Source: Escherichia phage A4. Taken from it: a stretch of 64,000 nt of DNA. The notes below the pieces were generated by a model that worked only from the letters and a program-made list of their open reading frames with translations, searched no databases and was not told the DNA's origin. This document shows, one piece after another, positions 17,436 through 29,627 of this stretch. The translations under genes were made by a program, and so were the position numbers. The stretch lies in sequence record ON286972; one strand, 5' to 3'. Each line of letters begins with the position of its first letter. Positions within the stretch are counted from its first letter, which is position 1.

Positions 17436-17443
17436 TATAAATA
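17436..17443 (+). promoter_or_regulatory. T4-late-promoter-like motif upstream of the tube gene
   Basis: Exact TATAAATA 38 bp upstream of the ATG. Confidence 0.5.
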
Positions 17444-17480: not shown

Positions 17481-18164
17481 ATGGCTACTATGCTAGATCG
17501 ATATGGCGTTCCGCTTGCTGGTGGTGGTCGTATTTCAATGAAACAACCAAAAGCAAAATATAAATTCCGTGTAATTTTCTTTGGTTTTGGTGCCAATGAT
17601 GATGGCAACATGATTACACTAGATACAAACACTGTTGGTGCAGTATCTGTATCGCATGAAAACGTAACTGTTCATAGTTATAACAGTTCCGCACACTATA
17701 AAGGCAAATATACTTGGGATGCGATTGAAGTTGCTTTCCGTGATTCAGTTGGTAATGCTTCAGCAAAAGCACTTTACAACCAAATGCGTAAAGAATTCAA
17801 CTACTATAGTCAAGAATCTCGTATGACTGATTCCCAGTTTAAATTTGAAATGTGGATTCAAGAACTAGATGGTTCTAACAGCGAAAATGCAACAAACCTT
17901 TTTGAAGGTACTCTAAGTACTTGGGTTTGTCAGGGTTGCTTTATTGAATCCAGCAACTTTGGTGATTGGGATTACTCTTCAAGCGAAGCACAAGTTATTA
18001 CAATGAGTGTTCAACCAGATGGTTGTGCTAAGTTGGGTCCAAACGGTGAAGCATTCGGTGATGAAGTTACTGGTTTCGGTAACCCAAGTACTGCATCTTC
18101 TATTAGTGGTGCACAAACCAACATTAGTAGTACTACACTACCTGATACAAACTTCTTTGATTAA
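17481..18164 (+). CDS. tail tube protein (gp19-like)
   Basis: Directly downstream of the sheath gene; TATAAATA motif 38 bp upstream; C-terminal DWDYSSSEAQVITMSV resembles the gp19 C-terminus. Confidence 0.6.
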   Translation: MATMLDRYGVPLAGGGRISMKQPKAKYKFRVIFFGFGANDDGNMITLDTNTVGAVSVSHENVTVHSYNSSAHYKGKYTWDAIEVAFRDSVGNASAKALYNQMRKEFNYYSQESRMTDSQFKFEMWIQELDGSNSENATNLFEGTLSTWVCQGCFIESSNFGDWDYSSSEAQVITMSVQPDGCAKLGPNGEAFGDEVTGFGNPSTASSISGAQTNISSTTLPDTNFFD

Positions 18165-22278: not shown

Positions 22279-23751
22279 ATGCTTAAATTATTCAGTACTG
22301 AAAGTACGGTAGTTCCTAATGGGTATATCTATACTTCCCATACTGGAGCAAAATATGTCTTCTTAGAAGGTATGTGGTTCAATGATAGTAATATGATGAT
22401 GGTTGATCCACAAAAATATCCAAATATGTATGCTTGTGCTCGACAACAAATTGTTGAGCACAACAATAAATCAAACACTGCATTTAAAATTGGCGAAAAC
22501 TATCTTCACAATGGAAAAGAGTGTACGTTCATCGGTGAAAGCCGCTTCCATAGTGATGACGGTACTATTCTTTCTGAAAGTGAAGTGATTACAGAACTAA
22601 TGGGTGATGAACAACGTGTATATCAAGTTTCCAAAGAAACTCTACAAAAAGAGTGGAGTACTTTGAAATTTTATATTCTACCCCCACATGCACAAGATAT
22701 TTCTATCCCAGCAGGTATGGTAGTTCAAGGATATAAGTTTATTCCTAACAGTCATCGCTTTGTTGAACTAAAAAGCGGTCGCCCTGTAAGCCCAGAAATG
22801 ACACGTAAACTAAGTGAAGAAGGTCTTCGCATTGCTCGCCAATTATCTACAAACAATAAACTAATCCCATTGAAATCTGTATTGATTCAAGGTAATGTTC
22901 GTTCTGAATGGAACGGTAAAGAATTTTGCGATAATGACGGTAATGTGGTAGTATCTGAACAAGGCTCGAAAGCTATTTTCCAAGCATATTCACAGTTCGT
23001 TAAGGCAAATCCTGAAGATTTTCCTTCTTTAACTGGTGCTAGTACTGGTGAAGAACAACGTTTTGGTTCTGTACCGAAGCCAGAAAAAGTTACCGAAGCT
23101 GAAGATGAACCAGCAGTTGGTGTACCAGATGGATACCGTTTTACTTCTGGTAAAAACAAAACTTATGCTAAACAACGTGGTGCTTGGTTTGATGTTGAAA
23201 CTAAAAAACAACTAAATTCAGGTGCTGCACAAAGTATTGAGCGTGCTGCACAACAAGCTATTCTTAAACATAACGAATCCGGTGCAATGAAAATCGGAAC
23301 AAAAGTTACTTCTAAGAAAGGCAAAGAATATGTATACGTTGGTGGTGATCGATTCATTGGTCCAGATGGTAAAATGATTCCAAAAAGTGCTGCACAAGCT
23401 ATTCTGGATCGTTTTGAATCTTCTAAATCAGAGAATGAACCTAAACCAAATGACGCACCACAAGAAGAACCAAAAGCACAAGAAGAACCTAAACCTGAAG
23501 CACAGGCTGAACCGAAAGAAGAACCAAAGGAAGAGCCTAAACCAGAACCGACCCCTGAACCAGAAGTTGAGCAAGGGAATGGTATGGAAGCACTTGCATC
23601 ACAAATTAAATCTTCTCCTTATGCGAAAAAGATTACAGTACTGCTAACCCGTGGTGATAAGGTTTCTTTACTAGCCGCTGACATTCTATTAGCTGGTAAT
23701 AAAGATGAAGTAGTGCAGATTTTAAAATCATTAAATAATAATGATGAATAA
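22279..23751 (+). CDS. hypothetical repeat-containing protein
   Basis: 490 aa; recurring G-x-Y-x-F-x-G-D-x-F...DG modules and a PEPK-rich low-complexity linker (EPKPEAQAEPKEEPKEEPKPEP). Confidence 0.55.
   Translation: MLKLFSTESTVVPNGYIYTSHTGAKYVFLEGMWFNDSNMMMVDPQKYPNMYACARQQIVEHNNKSNTAFKIGENYLHNGKECTFIGESRFHSDDGTILSESEVITELMGDEQRVYQVSKETLQKEWSTLKFYILPPHAQDISIPAGMVVQGYKFIPNSHRFVELKSGRPVSPEMTRKLSEEGLRIARQLSTNNKLIPLKSVLIQGNVRSEWNGKEFCDNDGNVVVSEQGSKAIFQAYSQFVKANPEDFPSLTGASTGEEQRFGSVPKPEKVTEAEDEPAVGVPDGYRFTSGKNKTYAKQRGAWFDVETKKQLNSGAAQSIERAAQQAILKHNESGAMKIGTKVTSKKGKEYVYVGGDRFIGPDGKMIPKSAAQAILDRFESSKSENEPKPNDAPQEEPKAQEEPKPEAQAEPKEEPKEEPKPEPTPEPEVEQGNGMEALASQIKSSPYAKKITVLLTRGDKVSLLAADILLAGNKDEVVQILKSLNNNDE
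22291..22302. repeat. 12-bp palindrome TTCAGTACTGAA
   Basis: Inside a CDS at codons 5-8, F-S-T-E frame. Confidence 0.8.
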
Positions 23752-23770
23752 CTAAAAGGATTTATTGAAA

Positions 23771-24715
23771 ATGGCAAAAAAAATTAATGAAGCACAGGTT
23801 AAAATTGATATTGCTGGTCTAGAATCTGATGATCTAGAAGCACTATCCCGTATGCTTGCACTAGCTGGTCAAGCTGAAAAGCAATCATCCGTAGCACCTA
23901 CTGTTTCTCCAATCGCTCCACTTGACTTCGGTTCTTTTGGTGGTTCAGCGGAAGAACCAGAAGTTGTTGCTCCAGAAATGGGTGCTGATGTAGCACCTGT
24001 TCCAGAAATTGGTGAAGAAGACCCACTAGCACAAGCTGTTGATGATCTATCTGGTTCAGTAACTGATTTCGGTGCTGATGCAGAAGGTGAAGCTGACATT
24101 CCAGTTATCGATGTTGAAGCTCCTGGTGAAGAAGATGAACTTTCTCTTGACATGAGTGGTCAACCTAAGCTAGAATCTACTCTATCAGATGAAGACGAAG
24201 AAGTTATTGAAGAAGAATTCGATTTCGGTCGTATGATGTCTCTAGCTGGTCTTCCTGTTACTGAAGCAGTAGATGAAGATGAAGAAGAAATTGAAGAAGA
24301 AGTTACTGAATCTCAAATCCTTCCTGACCTAAGTCTAGAAGAAGAGAGTCCAGCACTTGACACAACTGATTTTGGTCCTTTCCGTTCTGAATACGATGCT
24401 GTTCAAGATGGTCAAGCTAAAACCAATGGTGTTGAAGGTGATAACTTCATCGTAGTTCCTAAAGGAAACCAATTCTACTGGAGACGTGTTGTTCAAGAAG
24501 AACTTGACAATGTTCCAAATCCAGAAGAATATGATAATGAAGGCAATGTACATCGTGTACATGAATTCAAGCCAAAAGCACCTGGTACTGCTCTAGGTGA
24601 TAACCCACTTAATGTTTACGAAGCTGAAGAAGAAGAGTCTGAAGAAGACGAATCTGTAGAAGACATTTTTGAAAGTCTCCAAAGTAAGTACAATAAGTTT
24701 CTAGGAGATAAGTAA
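23771..24715 (+). CDS. highly acidic protein (scaffold or internal-protein-like)
   Basis: ATG at 23771 (track TTG 23765); long D/E-rich segments. Confidence 0.5.
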   Translation: MAKKINEAQVKIDIAGLESDDLEALSRMLALAGQAEKQSSVAPTVSPIAPLDFGSFGGSAEEPEVVAPEMGADVAPVPEIGEEDPLAQAVDDLSGSVTDFGADAEGEADIPVIDVEAPGEEDELSLDMSGQPKLESTLSDEDEEVIEEEFDFGRMMSLAGLPVTEAVDEDEEEIEEEVTESQILPDLSLEEESPALDTTDFGPFRSEYDAVQDGQAKTNGVEGDNFIVVPKGNQFYWRRVVQEELDNVPNPEEYDNEGNVHRVHEFKPKAPGTALGDNPLNVYEAEEEESEEDESVEDIFESLQSKYNKFLGDK

Positions 24716-25120: not shown

Positions 25121-25465
25121 ATGATACCACAACCCACTAACAGCACTGAATTTCAAAATGAAGTACTTATAAAAGTTAAAGAAGTACATGAATCGGACGC
25201 TGAAATCACTGACAGAATGCTTCTGATGTCTATTTTTGAAAACTTCAGAACTGGTGGTGGTTTGAGGCTTAGTAAGTATGGATTTATGATTTGTGAAGAA
25301 AATAATCTTTATGAATTTACAAAAATCCCCTTGCTAAGAGAGTTCAAAAGCTCTATAATATTTACATCGCTTGATAGAATATGTAGAAGTCCTTATTATG
25401 TTGATGGCTACTACATATATCTCTCCGACGCAATGATAGTTACTGAATTAACATTGTGTCGGTGA
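25121..25465 (+). CDS. hypothetical protein
   Basis: 114-aa ORF. Confidence 0.5.
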   Translation: MIPQPTNSTEFQNEVLIKVKEVHESDAEITDRMLLMSIFENFRTGGGLRLSKYGFMICEENNLYEFTKIPLLREFKSSIIFTSLDRICRSPYYVDGYYIYLSDAMIVTELTLCR

Positions 25466-25529
25466 TGATTTCAAGCAGTTATTTTCGATGCATATGTAGA
25501 ACGCTTCGAAAATAAAAATGAAAAAGATG

Positions 25530-25557
25530 TTGACAGTACAGATTAACGTGATATAAT
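25530..25557 (+). promoter_or_regulatory. strong sigma70-type promoter P1 upstream of the MoxR-VWA operon
   Basis: TTGACA, 16-bp spacer, extended -10 TGaTATAAT. Confidence 0.65.
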
Positions 25558-25623
25558 GAACGTCACGAAGCAAGATTTCAAAATCACAAGATGTGAGATT
25601 GAAAAAGAAAGAAAAAAAGTTGT

Positions 25624-25651
25624 TGACAAGCCTGAACGATGTGATATAATG
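25624..25651 (+). promoter_or_regulatory. strong sigma70-type promoter P2 upstream of the MoxR-VWA operon
   Basis: TTGACA, 16-bp spacer, TGaTATAAT; the -10 is flanked by the inverted repeat GATGTG / CACATC. Confidence 0.65.
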
Positions 25652-25712
25652 ACCACATCAAGACGGCAAACAAGATTGACCTTTTTAAACACACGGATGA
25701 TTCACTGAAGAT

Positions 25713-25752
25713 AAGGAACTGATAAGTTAAAATACTTTTAACACAGTTCCTT
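25713..25752 (+). repeat. nested palindrome / hairpin in the leader of the MoxR-VWA operon
   Basis: AAGGAACTG ... CAGTTCCTT outer 9-bp stem enclosing the inner inverted repeat GTTAAAA-TAC-TTTTAAC. Confidence 0.6.
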
Positions 25753-25779
25753 TACTTTTGCCAACGGATTGGTTATAAT
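25751..25779 (+). promoter_or_regulatory. weaker promoter-like site P3 proximal to the MoxR start
   Basis: TTTACT, 17-bp spacer, TATAAT about 38 bp before the ATG. Confidence 0.4.
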
Positions 25780-25817
25780 ATAAACCTAGTTTTTTATCCA
25801 ACAAAAGGAAAATACAC

Positions 25818-27143
25818 ATGAGCGAACAACAAGATATCCTGAACGTAAAACTGACTCCTAAGAAAGCAAAAATGGCTATGGCTCTGGCAGATAAAATTCA
25901 GGATAGTCTGATGATTTGGGGTAGCCCTGGTATCGGTAAGTCTGCGATTGCACGTCAATACGCTGACGAGAACTATCCTCTTCGTAAGGATAACTTGGCT
26001 AAAATCGAGTTCATGAAACAACAAATTGAAGTTGATACTGAAAATGCTGATGCACTTCGCCGCGAACTGGCAGCGTTTGAAGCAAAACTGATTGACCAAG
26101 ACACTAACTTCATCGACTTCCGTCTGTCACAGATTGAACCAAGTGACCTACGTGGTATCCCAGTCCCTGAAAAAGTGTTCCTGGATATGGATGGCAAACA
26201 ACTGATTGAATCTGAACTGGAAACAGCTAAAGATTACATTGCTGAAACAGCAGTTGTATGGGCAGCACCTAAAGTACTGAAACTGTCTCCAGATTGGAAA
26301 GGTGTTATCCTGTTTGACGAAATTAACTCTGCTATGCCGATTGTACAGGCAGCGTCTTATCAGCTAATCCTCGACCGTTGTGTTGGTGAGATGAAGCTAC
26401 CTAAGACTGCACTGATTCTCGCAGCAGGTAACCGTGAAACTGATGGCGGCGTAACGTTCTCTCTGGCAACGCCACTACGTGACCGTATGACCCACATCGA
26501 AATGGTTCCTTACCATCAAGATTGGATTGACGATTACGCGATTGCTAAGCGTTTGAACCCAGGTACTGTTGCGTTCATCAACAACACTGGTGCTAAGTAC
26601 TTCAACACCCTTAGCCCACAAGATCCTTCTCACAGTGGTGGTACTTCTCCACGTTCATGGGAAGCAGTAGCACGCTACGAAGACCTGAAGAAAGGCAACA
26701 ACATTGATAAAGAAGTGTTCCGTGCTCTAATCGCTGGTCGTGTTGGTGAAGGTGTAGCAACTGAATATATCGAATACGTAGAAAACGTATCTAAACTACC
26801 AGATACTATGTCCATCCTACAGGGTGAGATTAAAGAGATTGATGCAACGCTGGATATTTCTGCGAACTACTTCATCTCTCTGAATCTGGTTTATAAAATT
26901 ATCGACCTGTACAATGAGAAGCAAGAACAACGTCTTCCAGTTGAAGAGTGGGGCAAGCTGTGCAACAACTTCATCACCTTCCTGGACCGTAACTTCTCCG
27001 AAACTCAGGCAGAACTGGCAGTACTAGCAATTCGTACCATCACTCAACATAAGGTAGCGATTGCGTACAAAGATGTTCCAGCGTTCAAAGACTTCGTTAT
27101 GAAGTACTCTGACCTAGTACGCAAAGCACGTTCTCTTGGTTAA
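25818..27143 (+). CDS. AAA+ ATPase, MoxR/CbbQ-like
   Basis: Walker A GSPGIGKS, Walker B VILFDEIN, sensor region LAAGNRE; 441 aa. Confidence 0.85.
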   Translation: MSEQQDILNVKLTPKKAKMAMALADKIQDSLMIWGSPGIGKSAIARQYADENYPLRKDNLAKIEFMKQQIEVDTENADALRRELAAFEAKLIDQDTNFIDFRLSQIEPSDLRGIPVPEKVFLDMDGKQLIESELETAKDYIAETAVVWAAPKVLKLSPDWKGVILFDEINSAMPIVQAASYQLILDRCVGEMKLPKTALILAAGNRETDGGVTFSLATPLRDRMTHIEMVPYHQDWIDDYAIAKRLNPGTVAFINNTGAKYFNTLSPQDPSHSGGTSPRSWEAVARYEDLKKGNNIDKEVFRALIAGRVGEGVATEYIEYVENVSKLPDTMSILQGEIKEIDATLDISANYFISLNLVYKIIDLYNEKQEQRLPVEEWGKLCNNFITFLDRNFSETQAELAVLAIRTITQHKVAIAYKDVPAFKDFVMKYSDLVRKARSLG

Positions 27144-27166
27144 TAACTAAAAGAATGTTTGACAAG

Positions 27167-27193
27167 AAGGATGCCACATGGTATCCTTCTTTT
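27167..27193 (+). terminator. hairpin between the MoxR and VWA genes (attenuator-like)
   Basis: AAGGATGCC / GGTATCCTT stem (one G-U), ACAT loop, then CTTTTATCTT. Confidence 0.35.
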
Positions 27194-27217
27194 ATCTTAA
27201 CTAAACGAGGAAATATC

Positions 27218-28621
27218 ATGTCCGATAAGAAATTTAGCGACGTAACACCACAACTCCAGAAAGAATGCCAAGACCGTTTGATTCTTGCTCGTACTTCTCT
27301 GATGTTAACTGCTCCATTCTTTGGTGTACTGGCTTCACGTCTGCGTCCAGTTGCAAACAATACATGGTGTCGTACCTTAGCAGTAGATGGTAAACATTTA
27401 TTCTATAACGTAGAATTTATCATGGGTATTCAAGACCCAAGCAAGAAAGAAGCATACGAAGAAGCAATTCGTGAGAAGCATCCTGAAGTAACTGAAGAAC
27501 AATTGAAAGAAATGACCGAAGGTTTGACTGATGAAAACCTGATTGCAGTTATCTGTCATGAAATTCTTCACTGTGCATACGATCACTTCCTTCGTCGTGG
27601 TATGCGTGACCCACAACGCTACAACCGTGCAGCAGACTACGCAATCAACCAAATTATTGTTCGTGAAAAAATTGGTAAGATTCAAAGTCAATGGTTGTAT
27701 GATAAGAAGTATGATGGTATGACCGCCGAAGAGATTTATATTCTTCTAGAAGAAGAAGATAAACAAGATCAAGATGAAGGTGAAGGACAACCACAATCTG
27801 GTAGTGGTGAAGGTGAAGGTAAATCACGCGGTACTTTTGGTGATATCCAAAATGGTAAAGGCAAAGGCACTACCATTGACCAACACGATGTACCACAAGA
27901 TGGTGAAGGTGGTGCATCTGAAGCACAAAAACGTGAATACATGGACGATTTCAAAACAGCAATGATGAATGCTGCTCGTGCAGGTGGTACTCCTGCTGAA
28001 ATCGCTCGTATGATCAATAACTTTAAAGAACCAAAAATTGACTGGCGTTCTAAACTTCAACGTACTCTTCGTAGCTGGTTGAAGTCCGATGCGACCTATC
28101 AAAGCCCAAGCCGCCGTTCGTGGGGTGCTGGTTTTGGTTCTAACGGTTCATTCTACGGGAATCCAATCTTCCCAGGTATGAAACCAGATGACGATATTGA
28201 TATTGCAATTGCACTCGATGCATCAGGCTCTATCAGTGAAGATATGCTTCGTGATTTCATCAGTGAAGTACTAGGCATCACTAAACAATTCAAGCAGTTT
28301 AAAATTCGTATCATGACATTTGATACTGAAGTTTATACTGTGATGGATTATAAAACTGGTGAAGAACGTAAGATTCTTGAATATCCAGTTAAAGGTGGTG
28401 GCGGTACTGACTTTGAAGCAGTTTGGGTTCACATGAAGCATGACAATTATAAGCCTAAACAGCTTATCATGTTTACCGATGGTGAACCGTGGCAGTCATG
28501 GGGTGATCCTAACTACTGTAAAACACTGTTTGTGATTCACAGTAACCCGAACAAAGTAGCACCATTTGGTGAAACTGTTCACTACGAATATGAAGCGGAC
28601 AAAAAACGCCAACGTTCGTAA
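27218..28621 (+). CDS. VWA domain protein with N-terminal metallopeptidase-like (HExxH) domain, MoxR partner type
   Basis: HEILHCAYDH zincin-like motif; MIDAS-like DASGS followed by a VWA-type segment; ATG 27218 with GAGG RBS (track start 27155 precedes a hairpin). Confidence 0.8.
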   Translation: MSDKKFSDVTPQLQKECQDRLILARTSLMLTAPFFGVLASRLRPVANNTWCRTLAVDGKHLFYNVEFIMGIQDPSKKEAYEEAIREKHPEVTEEQLKEMTEGLTDENLIAVICHEILHCAYDHFLRRGMRDPQRYNRAADYAINQIIVREKIGKIQSQWLYDKKYDGMTAEEIYILLEEEDKQDQDEGEGQPQSGSGEGEGKSRGTFGDIQNGKGKGTTIDQHDVPQDGEGGASEAQKREYMDDFKTAMMNAARAGGTPAEIARMINNFKEPKIDWRSKLQRTLRSWLKSDATYQSPSRRSWGAGFGSNGSFYGNPIFPGMKPDDDIDIAIALDASGSISEDMLRDFISEVLGITKQFKQFKIRIMTFDTEVYTVMDYKTGEERKILEYPVKGGGGTDFEAVWVHMKHDNYKPKQLIMFTDGEPWQSWGDPNYCKTLFVIHSNPNKVAPFGETVHYEYEADKKRQRS

Positions 28622-28631
28622 AAATAAATAT

Positions 28632-28660
28632 AGAGAACGATTCGTCGTTCTCTTTTATTT
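28632..28660 (+). terminator. rho-independent terminator after the VWA gene
   Basis: AGAGAACGA / TCGTTCTCT perfect stem, TTCG loop, TTTTATTTT tail. Confidence 0.7.
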
Positions 28661-28667
28661 TATAATT

Positions 28668-28695
28668 GGGACAACCCAATTAACTATGATATAAT
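28668..28695 (+). promoter_or_regulatory. sigma70-like early promoter
   Basis: GGGACA, 16-bp spacer, TGaTATAAT. Confidence 0.5.
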
Positions 28696-28728: not shown

Positions 28729-28971
28729 ATGAGTACTGAAAACAATGCACAAGACGAAGTAATCCTAGACCTAGTTGACCTAATCAACGCTGCTCGTATT
28801 ATGGAATCTGCGGTTGCACGTAATGCGTTTCAAGTTGATGAACTAGTGAACGTAGCACCAATTGTTTCCAAGTTCGTTAAATTTGCTGATAAAGCACTTG
28901 CTGATATCAAAGAACGTGAAGAAGCTGCTGCTCAAGCACAAGATACCGCTGGTACAGAAGGGGAAGAATAA
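28729..28971 (+). CDS. hypothetical protein
   Basis: 80-aa ORF after a promoter-like site. Confidence 0.5.
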   Translation: MSTENNAQDEVILDLVDLINAARIMESAVARNAFQVDELVNVAPIVSKFVKFADKALADIKEREEAAAQAQDTAGTEGEE

Positions 28972-29627
28972 TGGCTGCTATTCGTCACACAGGTGTAATT
29001 CGTAATACTGGTTCTCGTGTTTTCGTTGTTTGGCGTTCACTTCCAGATGATCATGATCATTGTCTAGTTGTGTATCGTGACTCACTTCCAGAAGCATATG
29101 TATCTGCTGTAACCGATTTAGTTATGGGTCGTGGACAAGCTTCTGTTGAACTTTGGGAAGTTATGCATCAAGTAGGTTATCTCGATGGTCGTAAAATGCT
29201 AGATGTTCTTCACAATCTACAATATCTACGTAAAGTCCGTACTTGTGATATTGACATGCACACTGGCGGTAACAACAAGATTTCACTTGATGTACTGAAT
29301 GATGCAATCGACGGTAATGAAAGTAAAAAACATGAAGATGGTAAAGTAAAAGATTACAACCCATTCAATCCACAAGTTCAAGATACAAAAGTCGAAGATG
29401 AAACTATTGTTGATGAACTACTAAAAACTGCTGCAAAATATGATCAACTAGCTAAAGAGCATTATGAGCGTGCTTATAACCTAGAACCTTCTCTTCGTCC
29501 CAACGAAACGAATGTGAAAACTGATTCTGATAAGAAAGTTTTTTACATTGAACTTCCAGAAGGTATTTCTCAAACCAAAGCAATTGAGAAACTAAAACTT
29601 GTTTTTGCAGAGCGTAAGAATGGCTAA
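28971..29627 (+). CDS. hypothetical protein
   Basis: 218-aa ORF. Confidence 0.5.
   Translation: MAAIRHTGVIRNTGSRVFVVWRSLPDDHDHCLVVYRDSLPEAYVSAVTDLVMGRGQASVELWEVMHQVGYLDGRKMLDVLHNLQYLRKVRTCDIDMHTGGNNKISLDVLNDAIDGNESKKHEDGKVKDYNPFNPQVQDTKVEDETIVDELLKTAAKYDQLAKEHYERAYNLEPSLRPNETNVKTDSDKKVFYIELPEGISQTKAIEKLKLVFAERKNG

Follow-up and report, generated by a model that had tools for sequence, protein, structure and literature searches.

What is the function of a two-gene locus in which a phage couples an AAA+ ATPase to a partner with both a metallopeptidase-like and a VWA domain, and has such a locus been described before? The question is posed by Escherichia phage A4 (sequence record ON286972), of which we analysed a stretch of 64,000 nucleotides, here called the window; the stretch is that of a Rak2/121Q-like jumbo phage. 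An earlier note, made from the sequence, had put the locus forward as an undescribed system.

Gene calls at the locus

The note had reported genes for a 441-aa ATPase and a 467-aa partner, together with four motifs. Both open reading frames were confirmed, and all four motifs were found (GSPGIGKS and ILFDEIN in the ATPase; HEILHCAYDH and DASGS in the partner).

25818..27143, plus strand: MoxR-class AAA+ ATPase (predicted), N4 gp24 family, phrog_1297, 441 aa
27218..28621, plus strand: partner, N4 gp25 family, phrog_1314, DUF2201_N, linker and DUF2201/VWA, 467 aa

The longest open reading frame of the partner spans 27155..28621 (488 aa), the 467-aa form beginning at the ATG at 27218. We consider 27218 the better start because GAGGA lies 8 nt 5' of it, because the homologues annotated in 121Q, K64-1, Turkey3, BF and XaC1 have equivalent starts, and because the stretch 27155-27217 contains a hairpin and indels that are not multiples of three.

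A predicted MoxR-class ATPase

Judged by its motifs and its structure model, the first gene product is a MoxR-class AAA+ ATPase in which the motifs for catalysis are intact. Across 64-65 homologues, Walker A residues G38, K41 and S42 are invariant, as is E168 of Walker B, with D167 nearly so. N205, R223 and P278-R279 are invariant in the same set and are also kept in distant homologues; from the alignment and general knowledge of AAA+ proteins we take N205 to be sensor 1, R223 the arginine finger and SPR279 sensor 2. A PSDLRGIP motif is conserved as well. The model (pLDDT 86) has beta-hairpins between Walker A and Walker B, and when it was compared with the PDB using Foldseek all of the top ten matches came from NorQ (E from 2e-7 to 1.2e-6; target-normalised TM-score 0.56-0.64), in hexamers and in NorQ-NorD complexes, which puts the fold nearest to solved MoxR proteins of the helix-2 insert / pre-sensor-1 hairpin clade. 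CbbQ2 followed at rank 19, and then McrB, dynein and RuvBL. Sequence searches against the PDB detected no relative of either protein.

In the Pfam search the ATPase scored under threshold (AAA, 21.0 bits against 21.2; AAA_3, 17.7 against 27) and had no AAA_5 match. Its homologues at 28-33% identity carry AAA_3 (PF07726), AAA_5 (PF07728) and bpMoxR (PF20030), and its Pfam membership of the MoxR class is therefore transitive rather than direct.

A predicted metallopeptidase domain fused to a VWA domain

The partner matches DUF2201_N (E 1.3e-35, 123.8 bits, cut-off 23.2) and then DUF2201 (E 1.6e-20, 73.9 bits, cut-off 26.4). Its sequence and model indicate a putative zincin-like metallopeptidase domain with the motif HExxHxxxxH at the N-terminus, a disordered acidic/Gly-rich linker, and a C-terminal VWA domain of Rossmann-like fold with a complete MIDAS site. 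In 64-65 homologues H114, E115 and H118 of the HExxH motif, which the model places in helix 105-123, are invariant, and H123, presumably the third metal ligand, is nearly so; D140 and N144 are invariant too. The MIDAS residues D334, S336, S338, T397 and D421 show the same invariance and are kept in all distant homologues checked. Among more distant representatives, HExxHxxxxH is present in 124/147 and DxSGS in 144/147. Two partner homologues contain inteins, located exactly within the HExxH and NxAxD motifs; sites critical to function are where inteins typically insert.

Profile searches, which the earlier note had recommended for both proteins, thus placed the partner above the cut-offs of DUF2201_N and DUF2201 and left the ATPase below its own. 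The claimed metallopeptidase-like and VWA composition of the partner is upheld, with an intact MIDAS site, and the MoxR assignment of the ATPase is supported by structure and motifs instead of a Pfam threshold.

The pair belongs to a widespread, described module

The A4 pair is a new copy of the widespread and already described N4 gp24/gp25 module, and the idea of an undescribed system did not survive. [quoted passage not shown] BLASTP found homology of the A4 proteins to gp24 and gp25 (E 1e-27 and 3e-30), with which they share gene order (gp24 5' of gp25), HExxHxxxxH, MIDAS and ATPase motifs. Compared with gp24, however, the jumbo-phage ATPase is ~90 aa longer: a coiled coil is inserted after Walker A and ahead of the PSDL motif, the helix-2 region carries another insertion, and the C-terminal helical domain is enlarged. 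The jumbo-phage partner differs from gp25 in its long linker. The A4 pair has sigma-70 promoters, whereas N4 middle genes are transcribed by phage RNA polymerase II. Iyer, Anantharaman, Krishnan, Burroughs and Aravind 2021 (PMC7824862) had already described this MoxR-vWA pair with an N-terminal metallopeptidase from group 2.2 jumbo phages (e.g. ASV44729.1/ASV44728.2); as described there, it has the same architecture and comes from the same phage group.

Records of >700 phages contain the pair, which also occurs on plasmids; ~25,000 cluster representatives make up the partner family. The pair belongs to the core genes of N4-like podoviruses, rV5-like myoviruses and jumbo phages, whose virion architectures are unrelated. 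The ATPase gene lies 5' of the partner gene on the same strand in 74/80 IMG/VR loci, usually with a gap of ~100 nt, and this order is maintained across very distant phages and plasmids, N4 and cyanophage S-TIM66 included. The rV5-like phages have the two genes on opposite strands with 3.6 kb between them, so that tight co-transcription cannot be a universal feature. Catalytic motifs are retained in the homologues of N4, rV5-like phages, cyanophages, Burkholderia and Ralstonia plasmids and Synechocystis pSYSA. Plasmid copies lie beside type IV secretion genes on conjugative plasmids and among toxin-antitoxin genes on pSYSA.

The best structural matches of the ATPase belong to the cellular systems of a MoxR hexamer and a VWA adaptor (NorQ-NorD; also CbbQ-CbbO and RavA-ViaA). 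NorQ-NorD structures place a VWA finger within the hexamer pore, and the MIDAS site has been proposed to bind the target (PMC13036017). The A4 partner likewise has the MIDAS pattern DxSxS-T-D, and by analogy one adaptor per hexamer is likely. Sequence identity is nevertheless 12-14%, NorD lacks a peptidase domain, and the A4 pair is mobile instead of chromosomal and has no respiratory or Rubisco client.

Kinship with cellular conflict systems, as the earlier note had suggested, found no support. The vWA-MoxR ternary systems (Kaur, Burroughs, Iyer, Aravind 2020; PMC7159879) likewise contain a MoxR and vWA chaperone couple, and require a third component carrying effector domains, which may be VMAP, inactive STAND, FtsH or a beta-propeller; some have an effector domain joined to the vWA protein itself. 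None of these four was found among the Pfam domains of the genes flanking the A4 pair, and PADLOC, which covers defence systems only, gave no match. Ternary systems occupy variable cellular islands, whereas the A4 pair belongs to a conserved core set of lytic phages.

Promoters and hairpins

The leader between the upstream gene and the ATPase gene contains the following elements.

25479..25515, no strand assigned: AT-rich 13-nt inverted repeat, 92% complementary, just past the stop codon of the 114-aa gene
25508..25559, plus strand: promoter unit P1, A-rich tract, TTGACA (25530)-N16-TG-TATAAT (25557), 12/12 match, extended -10
25601..25652, plus strand: promoter unit P2, A-rich tract, TTGACA (25623)-N16-TG-TATAAT (25650), 12/12 match, extended -10
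25697..25708, plus strand: predicted mini-ORF ATG ATT CAC TGA (M-I-H-stop), ending 4 nt 5' of the leader hairpin
25713..25759, plus strand: leader hairpin, nested stem 25713-25752, and U-rich tract, terminator- or attenuator-like
25751..25779, plus strand: weak promoter P3, TTTACT-N17-TATAAT, 10/12 match, 3' of the leader hairpin

P1 and P2 are the sole perfect sigma-70 matches in the window, where 0.33 would be expected by chance; at least two occurred in 3 of 100 shuffles. They are spaced 93 nt apart, each within a copy of a 52-nt direct repeat that includes the upstream A-rich tract, and the copies are 73% identical. P1 is kept in Turkey3, 121Q and K64-1, and P2 is degenerate in K64-1. At the P2 position BF and XaC1 have one promoter-like -10 site (TGGTATAAT in BF; weaker in XaC1). 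The -10 of P3 is kept in Turkey3 and 121Q, reads TATCAT in K64-1 and is missing in BF and XaC1. The inverted repeat is conserved in part among relatives.

The leader hairpin (-15.8 kcal/mol, z -5.0) is followed by UUUACUUUU. Hairpin and CCTTnnCTTTTG are kept in 6/6 Rak2-like leaders, with a compensatory A-T to C-G change, and occur also in loci L013-L015; an Rfam search gave no match. From its sequence and its position between P1/P2 and the ATPase gene, it looks like a terminator. Tiny ORFs occupy the same leader position as the mini-ORF in Turkey3, 121Q, K64-1, BF and XaC1, and the mini-ORF itself could be a chance occurrence.

Further elements lie between the two genes and behind the partner gene.

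27159..27187, plus strand: promoter-like site TTGACA-N17-TATCCT (with TG), 10/12 match, overlapping the intergenic hairpin
27164..27199, plus strand: terminator-like hairpin between ATPase and partner, 12-bp stem (27164-27191) and T tract
28632..28660, plus strand: end terminator, 9-bp stem (28632-28653) and T tract, z -4.2

The intergenic hairpin (-18.7 kcal/mol, z -5.1) is present in 6/6 Rak2-like phages with differing stem sequences. In related IMG/VR phages a hairpin was found in 40/49 distinct ATPase-partner spacers against 49/273 other gaps and 7% of shuffles; the Fisher p of 6e-18 for 40/49 against 49/273 overstates the support because these related loci are not phylogenetically independent. 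At the related loci there was no enrichment 5' of the ATPase (12/69) or 3' of the partner (19/68). The available part of PMC7824862 makes no mention of a conserved terminator between the two genes. The hairpin could alternatively be an mRNA-stabilising 3' end, the partner having its own promoter at the overlapping 10/12 site, which is kept only by phages of the E. coli and Klebsiella lineages. A hairpin at the position of the end terminator is present in 6/6 relatives.

The two near-consensus promoters, third weaker promoter, nested palindrome (the leader hairpin) and clean end terminator reported by the earlier note are thus all present. Its autonomous cassette with three stacked promoters is too simple a picture: transcripts from P1 and P2 have to pass one conserved terminator-like hairpin before the ATPase gene, another separates the two genes, and only the E. 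coli-phage lineage has the P1/P2 duplication.

Host RNA polymerase would initiate at the two consensus promoters, ahead of the late genes, and transcripts would then traverse the leader terminator, the ATPase gene, the second terminator, the partner gene and the final terminator. From this order more ATPase than partner would be expected, as would suit a complex of 6:1 composition. The related phage PA5oct relies on host RNA polymerase and has TTGAC/TATAATA promoters (PMC7318152), and N4 gp24/gp25 are reported to be middle genes (PMC4193335). However, at least one structural gene in the window (33459, minus strand) likewise has extended -10 sites of the sigma-70 type in front of it, so promoter type does not prove early timing.

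Gene neighbourhoods

Small genes of conserved families flank the pair.

25121..25465, plus strand: 114-aa gene, phrog_15638, directly 5' of the ATPase gene, co-conserved with the pair
28668..28695, plus strand: promoter of the next unit, GGGACA-N16-TG-TATAAT
28729..29627, plus strand: two co-conserved 3' genes, 80 aa (phrog_13789) and 218 aa (phrog_15894)

In environmental loci L016-L090, phrog_15638 homologues lie 5' of the ATPase in 45/75 and the 218-aa family 3' of the pair in 66/75. The 114-aa protein had no match in the Pfam search. The 218-aa family is restricted to the jumbo-phage clade, PA5oct included, and mass spectrometry of phAPEC6 virions detected 1 peptide of its member gp262c. 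The next-unit promoter is discernible in 6/6 relatives, its extended -10 being degenerate in XaC1. In Rak2-like phages the genes straight before the pair are virion genes, among them those for tail tube and head completion. Genes of DNA or nucleotide metabolism are also neighbours: ThyA in A4, dCTP deaminase in N4 and, in the environmental clade, ThyX, GTP cyclohydrolase I and 5'-3' exonuclease. In S-TIM66, Hsp20 and a virion structural gene lie nearby.

Possible functions of the pair

The explanation that we favour, and hold to be somewhat probable, is that the pair, as a member of the N4 gp24/gp25 family, makes up a protein-remodelling protease with two components and powered by ATP. On the pattern of NorQ-NorD, CbbQ-CbbO and Rea1, the ATPase would be a hexamer to which one partner molecule docks through its VWA domain, and the MIDAS metal would grip a target protein by a carboxylate or an acidic side chain. 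Hydrolysis of ATP would then pull or twist the partner, so that the target is remodelled and offered to the zincin site for cleavage.

For the same phage group, Iyer et al. 2021 (PMC7824862) propose a virion-assembly chaperone and maturation protease: the pair would aid in building the large virion and would cut structural proteins, by analogy with Acidianus two-tailed virus, whose MoxR/VWA proteins (ATV p618/p892) are needed for tail development according to that paper. The neighbouring virion genes of Rak2-like phages and S-TIM66 agree with such a role, as does the phAPEC6 ATPase gp265c in purified virions (6 peptides, 19% coverage). However, the phAPEC6 virion list includes thymidylate synthase and omits the partner gp264c, which suggests carry-over of abundant proteins. 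The proposal is further weakened by the wider distribution and gene contexts of the pair, which is core to phages with unrelated virions and present on conjugative and other plasmids, which make no virions. The middle, not late, class of N4 gp24/gp25 and the pair's own sigma-70 promoters, insulated from the structural genes upstream, also speak against it, and we regard a virion-assembly role as possible but rather unlikely. As substrate of the remodelling protease, a protein of the host, or a phage protein that is not structural, handled during the replication phase seems to us likelier than a virion protein.

If the target were a host protein, the favoured explanation would take a specific form, a counter-defence or host-takeover protease of mobile elements that removes or inactivates a protein of host immunity or housekeeping soon after the DNA has entered. 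Its spread over phages, conjugative plasmids and pSYSA, the strong host-type promoters P1/P2 and the middle-gene class in N4 are consistent with this, but counter-defence genes are normally patchy in distribution, and strict core status in N4-like phages is unusual for them. No known anti-defence homology was found, PADLOC covering defence systems only, and we judge this version unlikely. A metal- or cofactor-insertion chaperone of the NorQ-NorD, CoxD-CoxE or chelatase-like kind, with the HExxH domain holding or delivering metal to mature a metalloenzyme of phage or host instead of cutting proteins, seems improbable. Metal insertion is the mechanism of NorQ-NorD (PMC13036017), the closest solved structures, and nucleotide-metabolism genes recur near the pair, yet no candidate client enzyme is conserved alongside it across the lineages compared, and NorD, CbbO and CobT are without any peptidase-like domain. 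Moreover, the HExxH glutamate is invariant although it would be superfluous for metal storage; in zincin peptidases it is the catalytic base. A cobaltochelatase-like module of the CobS/CobT type, an annotation given in T4-like cyanophages and some large phages, resembles the pair in general architecture, with a VWA-containing gene behind an AAA+ gene, but is hardly credible here. The earlier note had named such a module as an outcome that would undo its reading; neither protein matched CobS_N, CobT or CobT_C in Pfam, the partner matching DUF2201_N and DUF2201, no equivalog was found in NCBIfam, and the HExxH domain is foreign to CobT.

A VWA domain is joined to a protease in complement factor B and C2 as well. 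This likeness is one of analogy, the protease parts not being homologous: that of the complement factors is of the serine type, lies C-terminal to the VWA domain, needs no ATPase and acts in a eukaryotic extracellular setting.

A MoxR-class ATPase with a zincin-like/VWA partner

[quoted passage not shown] The genes concerned are as follows.

Genes of the locus and its immediate neighbours
25121-25465, 5' of the ATPase gene: 114-aa gene (phrog_15638), co-conserved with the pair in Rak2-like phages
25818-27143, + strand: ATPase ORF, 441 aa
27155-28621, + strand: partner ORF, opening at 27155, with its almost certain start at 27218 (467 aa from there)
28729-29627, 3' of the partner gene: 80-aa (phrog_13789) and 218-aa (phrog_15894) genes, co-conserved in Rak2-like phages

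Both motifs ascribed to the ATPase, GSPGIGKS and ILFDEIN, were found, and an alignment of its homologues shows no or almost no variation in Walker A, Walker B, 'PSDLRGIP', the sensor-1 Asn, R223 and the 'SPR' sensor 2. Scores against Pfam AAA and AAA_3 lie just below or below the thresholds, while homologues at ~30% identity carry AAA_3, AAA_5 and bpMoxR. The predicted structure (pLDDT 86) has its nearest matches in NorQ hexamers and NorQ-NorD complexes (E 2e-7) and in CbbQ2.

The partner almost certainly starts at 27218, because GAGGA lies 8 nt upstream, all annotated homologues begin at the equivalent position, and the hairpin region at 27155-27217 varies in length among relatives by non-multiples of three; this start supports the length of 467 aa proposed from the sequence. 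The protein contains the expected HEILHCAYDH and DASGS motifs, and its Pfam domains are DUF2201_N (E 1.3e-35, described as 'putative metallopeptidase') and DUF2201 (E 1.6e-20, described as 'VWA-like'). Across 64 aligned homologues H114, E115, H118, D140 and N144 are invariant, as is the full MIDAS set (D334, S336, S338, T397 and D421), and H123 is nearly so, giving HExxHxxxxH. Among 147 distant representatives, 124 retain HExxHxxxxH and 144 retain DxSGS. The AlphaFold model (pLDDT 78) places HExxH on a long helix; residues 191-230 form a disordered linker that is acidic/Gly-rich, and the C-terminal domain is of alpha/beta type. The structural matches listed for the partner are VWA hits, so the zincin-type fold of the N-terminal domain is putative; the only other Pfam similarities of that domain are weak (PhageMetallopep E 0.004, M48 E 0.024). 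A PDB sequence search with single proteins and profiles returned only P-loop-level or marginal VWA matches, and NCBIfam equivalogs gave nothing meaningful for either protein.

Two long partner homologues (P0291 and P0287, from the representative search) are interrupted by inteins exactly at active-site motifs, and in important enzymes inteins favour sites of this kind. One intein, with Hint and LAGLIDADG domains, lies right after HEVLH and the other within the NxAxD motif. Fusions of ATPase and partner were considered as evidence of interaction and discarded: none occurs in the 147 distant representatives, where the long homologues are intein-bearing. The label 'HNH endonuclease', carried by phrog_1314 and many GenBank records, is a propagated annotation error, since searches detect no HNH domain and identify the protein as DUF2201_N plus VWA. 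Records of the partner family are also labelled 'Anti-sigma factor' and 'transcriptional regulator HdfR/MoxR1'.

A widespread family on phages and plasmids

Searches with tblastn against phage records found the partner in 707 and the ATPase in 822. The matches include N4-like podoviruses, rV5-like myoviruses, PA5oct-like and Rak2-like jumbo phages, Certrevirus, the Thermus phage phiFa and cyanophages. A partner profile searched against 1.84 billion representatives recovered 25,675 relatives at E<=1e-3, with 7,245 at E<=1e-30. Phage N4 gp24 and gp25 are direct homologues of ATPase and partner (E 1e-27 and 3e-30) in the same gene order; the literature counts both as N4-like core genes and classes them as middle genes (PMC4193335, PMC7650795). 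Plasmids of Burkholderia and Ralstonia (loci L007 and L008) carry homologous pairs too, with a gene of ~300 codons inserted between ATPase and VWA-peptidase, and on the Burkholderia plasmid the module stands directly 5' of VirB-type type IV secretion genes. Synechocystis pSYSA carries the pair as sll7029/sll7028. All catalytic motifs of both proteins are kept in the N4, rV5-like, cyanophage, plasmid and pSYSA homologues.

The two genes are generally linked. Of 80 IMG/VR loci picked up by the partner profile, 74 have an ATPase homologue 5' of the partner on the same strand, typically ~100 nt away. The rV5-like phages are the exception, their two genes being 3.6 kb apart on opposite strands. In one of these, slur16 (L010), the strands are divergent and another protein, of 346 aa and labelled 'HNH endonuclease', precedes the partner; rIIA is near the pair there, as are rIIA/rIIB in N4.

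The pair had been put forward as an undescribed system, a view that did not hold. Iyer et al. already describe it and propose that it serves virion assembly and peptidolytic processing (PMC7824862), the genes belong to the N4-like core set, and in GenBank the phAPEC6 homologues go by the labels 'MoxR ATPase' and 'N4 gp25-like protein'. In the literature searched we found no experimental study of the gp24/gp25-type family and nothing relevant on DUF2201 or COG3864, and the gene-essentiality papers (CRISPRi-ART, transposon mutagenesis) do not mention it. The locus thus adds one more member to a known family that is widespread and experimentally uncharacterised.

Genome setting

Rak2/121Q-like jumbo coliphages (Asteriusvirus and relatives) align with 99-100% of the segment 25466-28660, at a nucleotide identity of at most 88.6%. 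Gene order around the pair is identical in 121Q, Turkey3, K64-1, Serratia phage BF and Xanthomonas phage XaC1, and in each of these runs from virion structural genes through ATPase, partner, two small genes and a SLOG/DprA-like gene to thymidylate synthase. In the window, the upstream region at 22279-24715 holds two virion-protein genes with extremely acidic, low-complexity products, one of 490 aa with a PE/KE-rich repeat tail and one of 316 aa that is D/E-rich.

The 114-aa, 80-aa and 218-aa genes accompany the pair in a large environmental clade as well. The 218-aa family is confined to a jumbo-phage clade that includes PA5oct and Sinorhizobium phage Phosso, and in PA5oct its member stands apart from the partner homologue. 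We considered the 218-aa gene as a universal third component and ruled it out, as it is missing from N4-like and rV5-like phages. These three genes may have stayed beside the pair through inheritance of gene order, and not because all five work as a unit.

Transcription signals

The leader carries host-type promoters, and three terminator-like hairpins punctuate the locus.

Transcription features of the locus
25530-25557, + strand: promoter P1, TTGACA-N16-TATAAT, 12/12, with TG extension
25623-25650, + strand: promoter P2, TTGACA-N16-TATAAT, 12/12, with TG extension
25697-25708, + strand: mini-ORF of three codons (M-I-H-stop), from the ATG at 25697 to the TGA at 25708, ending 4 nt 5' of the leader hairpin
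25713-25752, + strand: leader hairpin, -15.8 kcal/mol, z -5.0
25751-25779, + strand: promoter P3, the third promoter, 10/12
27164-27199, + strand: intergenic hairpin (stem 27164-27191) and T tract, z -5.1
28632-28653, + strand: end terminator, confirmed

The two near-consensus promoters described previously are therefore perfect matches, and the third is the weaker site reported with them. As a stacked-promoter cassette closed by a clean terminator, the earlier picture stood in part: the promoters and the end terminator are present, but two internal terminator-like elements have to be added. P1 and P2 are the sole perfect sigma-70 sites in 64 kb (0.33 expected), and each lies in a copy of a duplicated 52-nt unit, together with an A-rich tract upstream of it. 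In an alignment of six Rak2-like leaders, only the E. coli-phage lineage has this duplication; a single good promoter is present in K64-1, and BF and XaC1 have a single promoter-like -10 site ~30 nt 5' of the leader hairpin (extended in BF, weaker in XaC1). P3, which sits 3' of that hairpin, is missing from BF and XaC1. What all six leaders share is not promoters but the hairpin followed by CCTTnnCTTTTG.

The leader hairpin, which follows P1/P2 and precedes the ATPase start by ~60 nt, resembles an intrinsic terminator; between lineages, A-T has given way to C-G in its stem as a compensatory change. Similar tiny ORFs occupy the position of the mini-ORF in 121Q, Turkey3, K64-1, BF and XaC1. Judged from sequence, this arrangement suggests either a translation-dependent read-through or attenuator device, or a small RNA that starts at P1 or P2 and ends at the hairpin. 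Rfam searches of the leader and the whole locus found no family and no known riboswitch or sRNA.

The intergenic hairpin is present in all six Rak2-like phages with differing stem sequences. The loci compared for this hairpin were L001-L005 and L011-L090. A single simple hairpin detector, applied to spacers and control gaps, found hairpins, with stems widely different in sequence, in 40 of 49 distinct ATPase-partner spacers of IMG/VR relatives; among the remaining same-strand gaps of these loci (40-260 nt) 49 of 273 had one, as did 7% of shuffled spacers (Fisher p 6e-18, a value inflated by the relatedness of the loci). Enrichment was also sought 5' of the ATPase (12/69) and 3' of the partner (19/68), with none detected; the 12/69 outside Rak2-like phages is background, so the leader terminator is confined to that group and was rejected as a feature of the whole family. 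We read the intergenic hairpin as a probable attenuator that would lower partner expression relative to the ATPase, which would fit one VWA adaptor per hexamer, as in NorQ-NorD. Alternatively, it could be an mRNA-stabilising 3' end, or the partner could be transcribed separately, a 10/12 promoter-like site overlapping the hairpin.

Expression timing

We infer, from indirect evidence, that the pair is expressed before the late genes. Its promoters are consensus sigma-70 sites, N4 gp24/gp25 belong to the middle genes, and transcription in the related phage PA5oct relies on host RNA polymerase and TTGAC/TATAATA promoters (PMC7318152). Neighbouring genes in other lineages often act in DNA or nucleotide metabolism (dCTP deaminase in N4; 5'-3' exonuclease, GTP cyclohydrolase I and ThyX in the environmental clade), as does ThyA in the window. 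Against this timing, a TGnTATAAT site also lies 5' of at least one structural gene in the window. The motif occurs 16 times in the whole window, with 7 expected, and its copies are often intergenic (9824, 13434, 28687, 33459 on the minus strand, and 50002). The T4-type late promoter TATAAATA was uninformative as a timing marker, being depleted (2 in the window, 8.3 expected); one copy, at 17436, lies 5' of an ORF that begins at 17481, in the region of the tail-tube gene.

Proposed function

In the mechanism we envisage, a MoxR hexamer would bind one partner molecule, the MIDAS metal would capture an acidic group on a target protein, and ATP-driven motion would remodel the target and present it to the zincin site. 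A more far-reaching reading, which we consider unlikely, makes the N4 gp24/gp25-type module a general device of mobile elements, of conjugative plasmids as much as of lytic phages. Powered by ATP and targeted through its MIDAS site, this protease would eliminate one particular host protein shortly after the DNA has entered, with its subunit ratio hard-wired by the conserved intergenic terminator. Output in Rak2-like phages would be further gated by the leader (promoter, mini-ORF and terminator), which may also release a small RNA.

The pair is one of few gene sets common to N4-like, rV5-like and Rak2/PA5oct-like phages, and knowing which protein it acts on would close a gap in the understanding of model and therapeutic phages and give the MoxR-VWA remodelling systems a branch that carries a protease. 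The copy in the window is an ordinary family member, whose added value lies in the corrected transcription picture, with terminators within the supposed cassette and an intergenic one conserved in those related phages that were examined, and in a testable prediction of subunit ratio. The family remains a worthwhile experimental target, to which the conserved intergenic terminator adds a small new testable point.

Metal insertion and host-directed counter-defence are rival roles for the pair. A CobS/CobT module was rejected on family assignment, as ATPase and partner match no CobS or CobT families, and membership of a conflict system, also suggested for the pair, was not borne out by the PADLOC defence models, none of which matched. 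The virion-assembly role proposed by Iyer et al. has some support: the pair adjoins virion genes, and the phAPEC6 ATPase, gp265c, was detected in purified virions with 6 peptides (PMC7247149). However, the partner gp264c is absent from the same virion proteome whereas the thymidylate synthase gp259c is present (PMC7247149), and the family spans unrelated virion types as well as plasmids. The phAPEC6 (L093) virion proteome also lists gp262c, the homologue of the 218-aa protein (PMC7247149), and detection of gp265c, gp262c and gp259c could reflect either true packaging or carry-over of abundant proteins.
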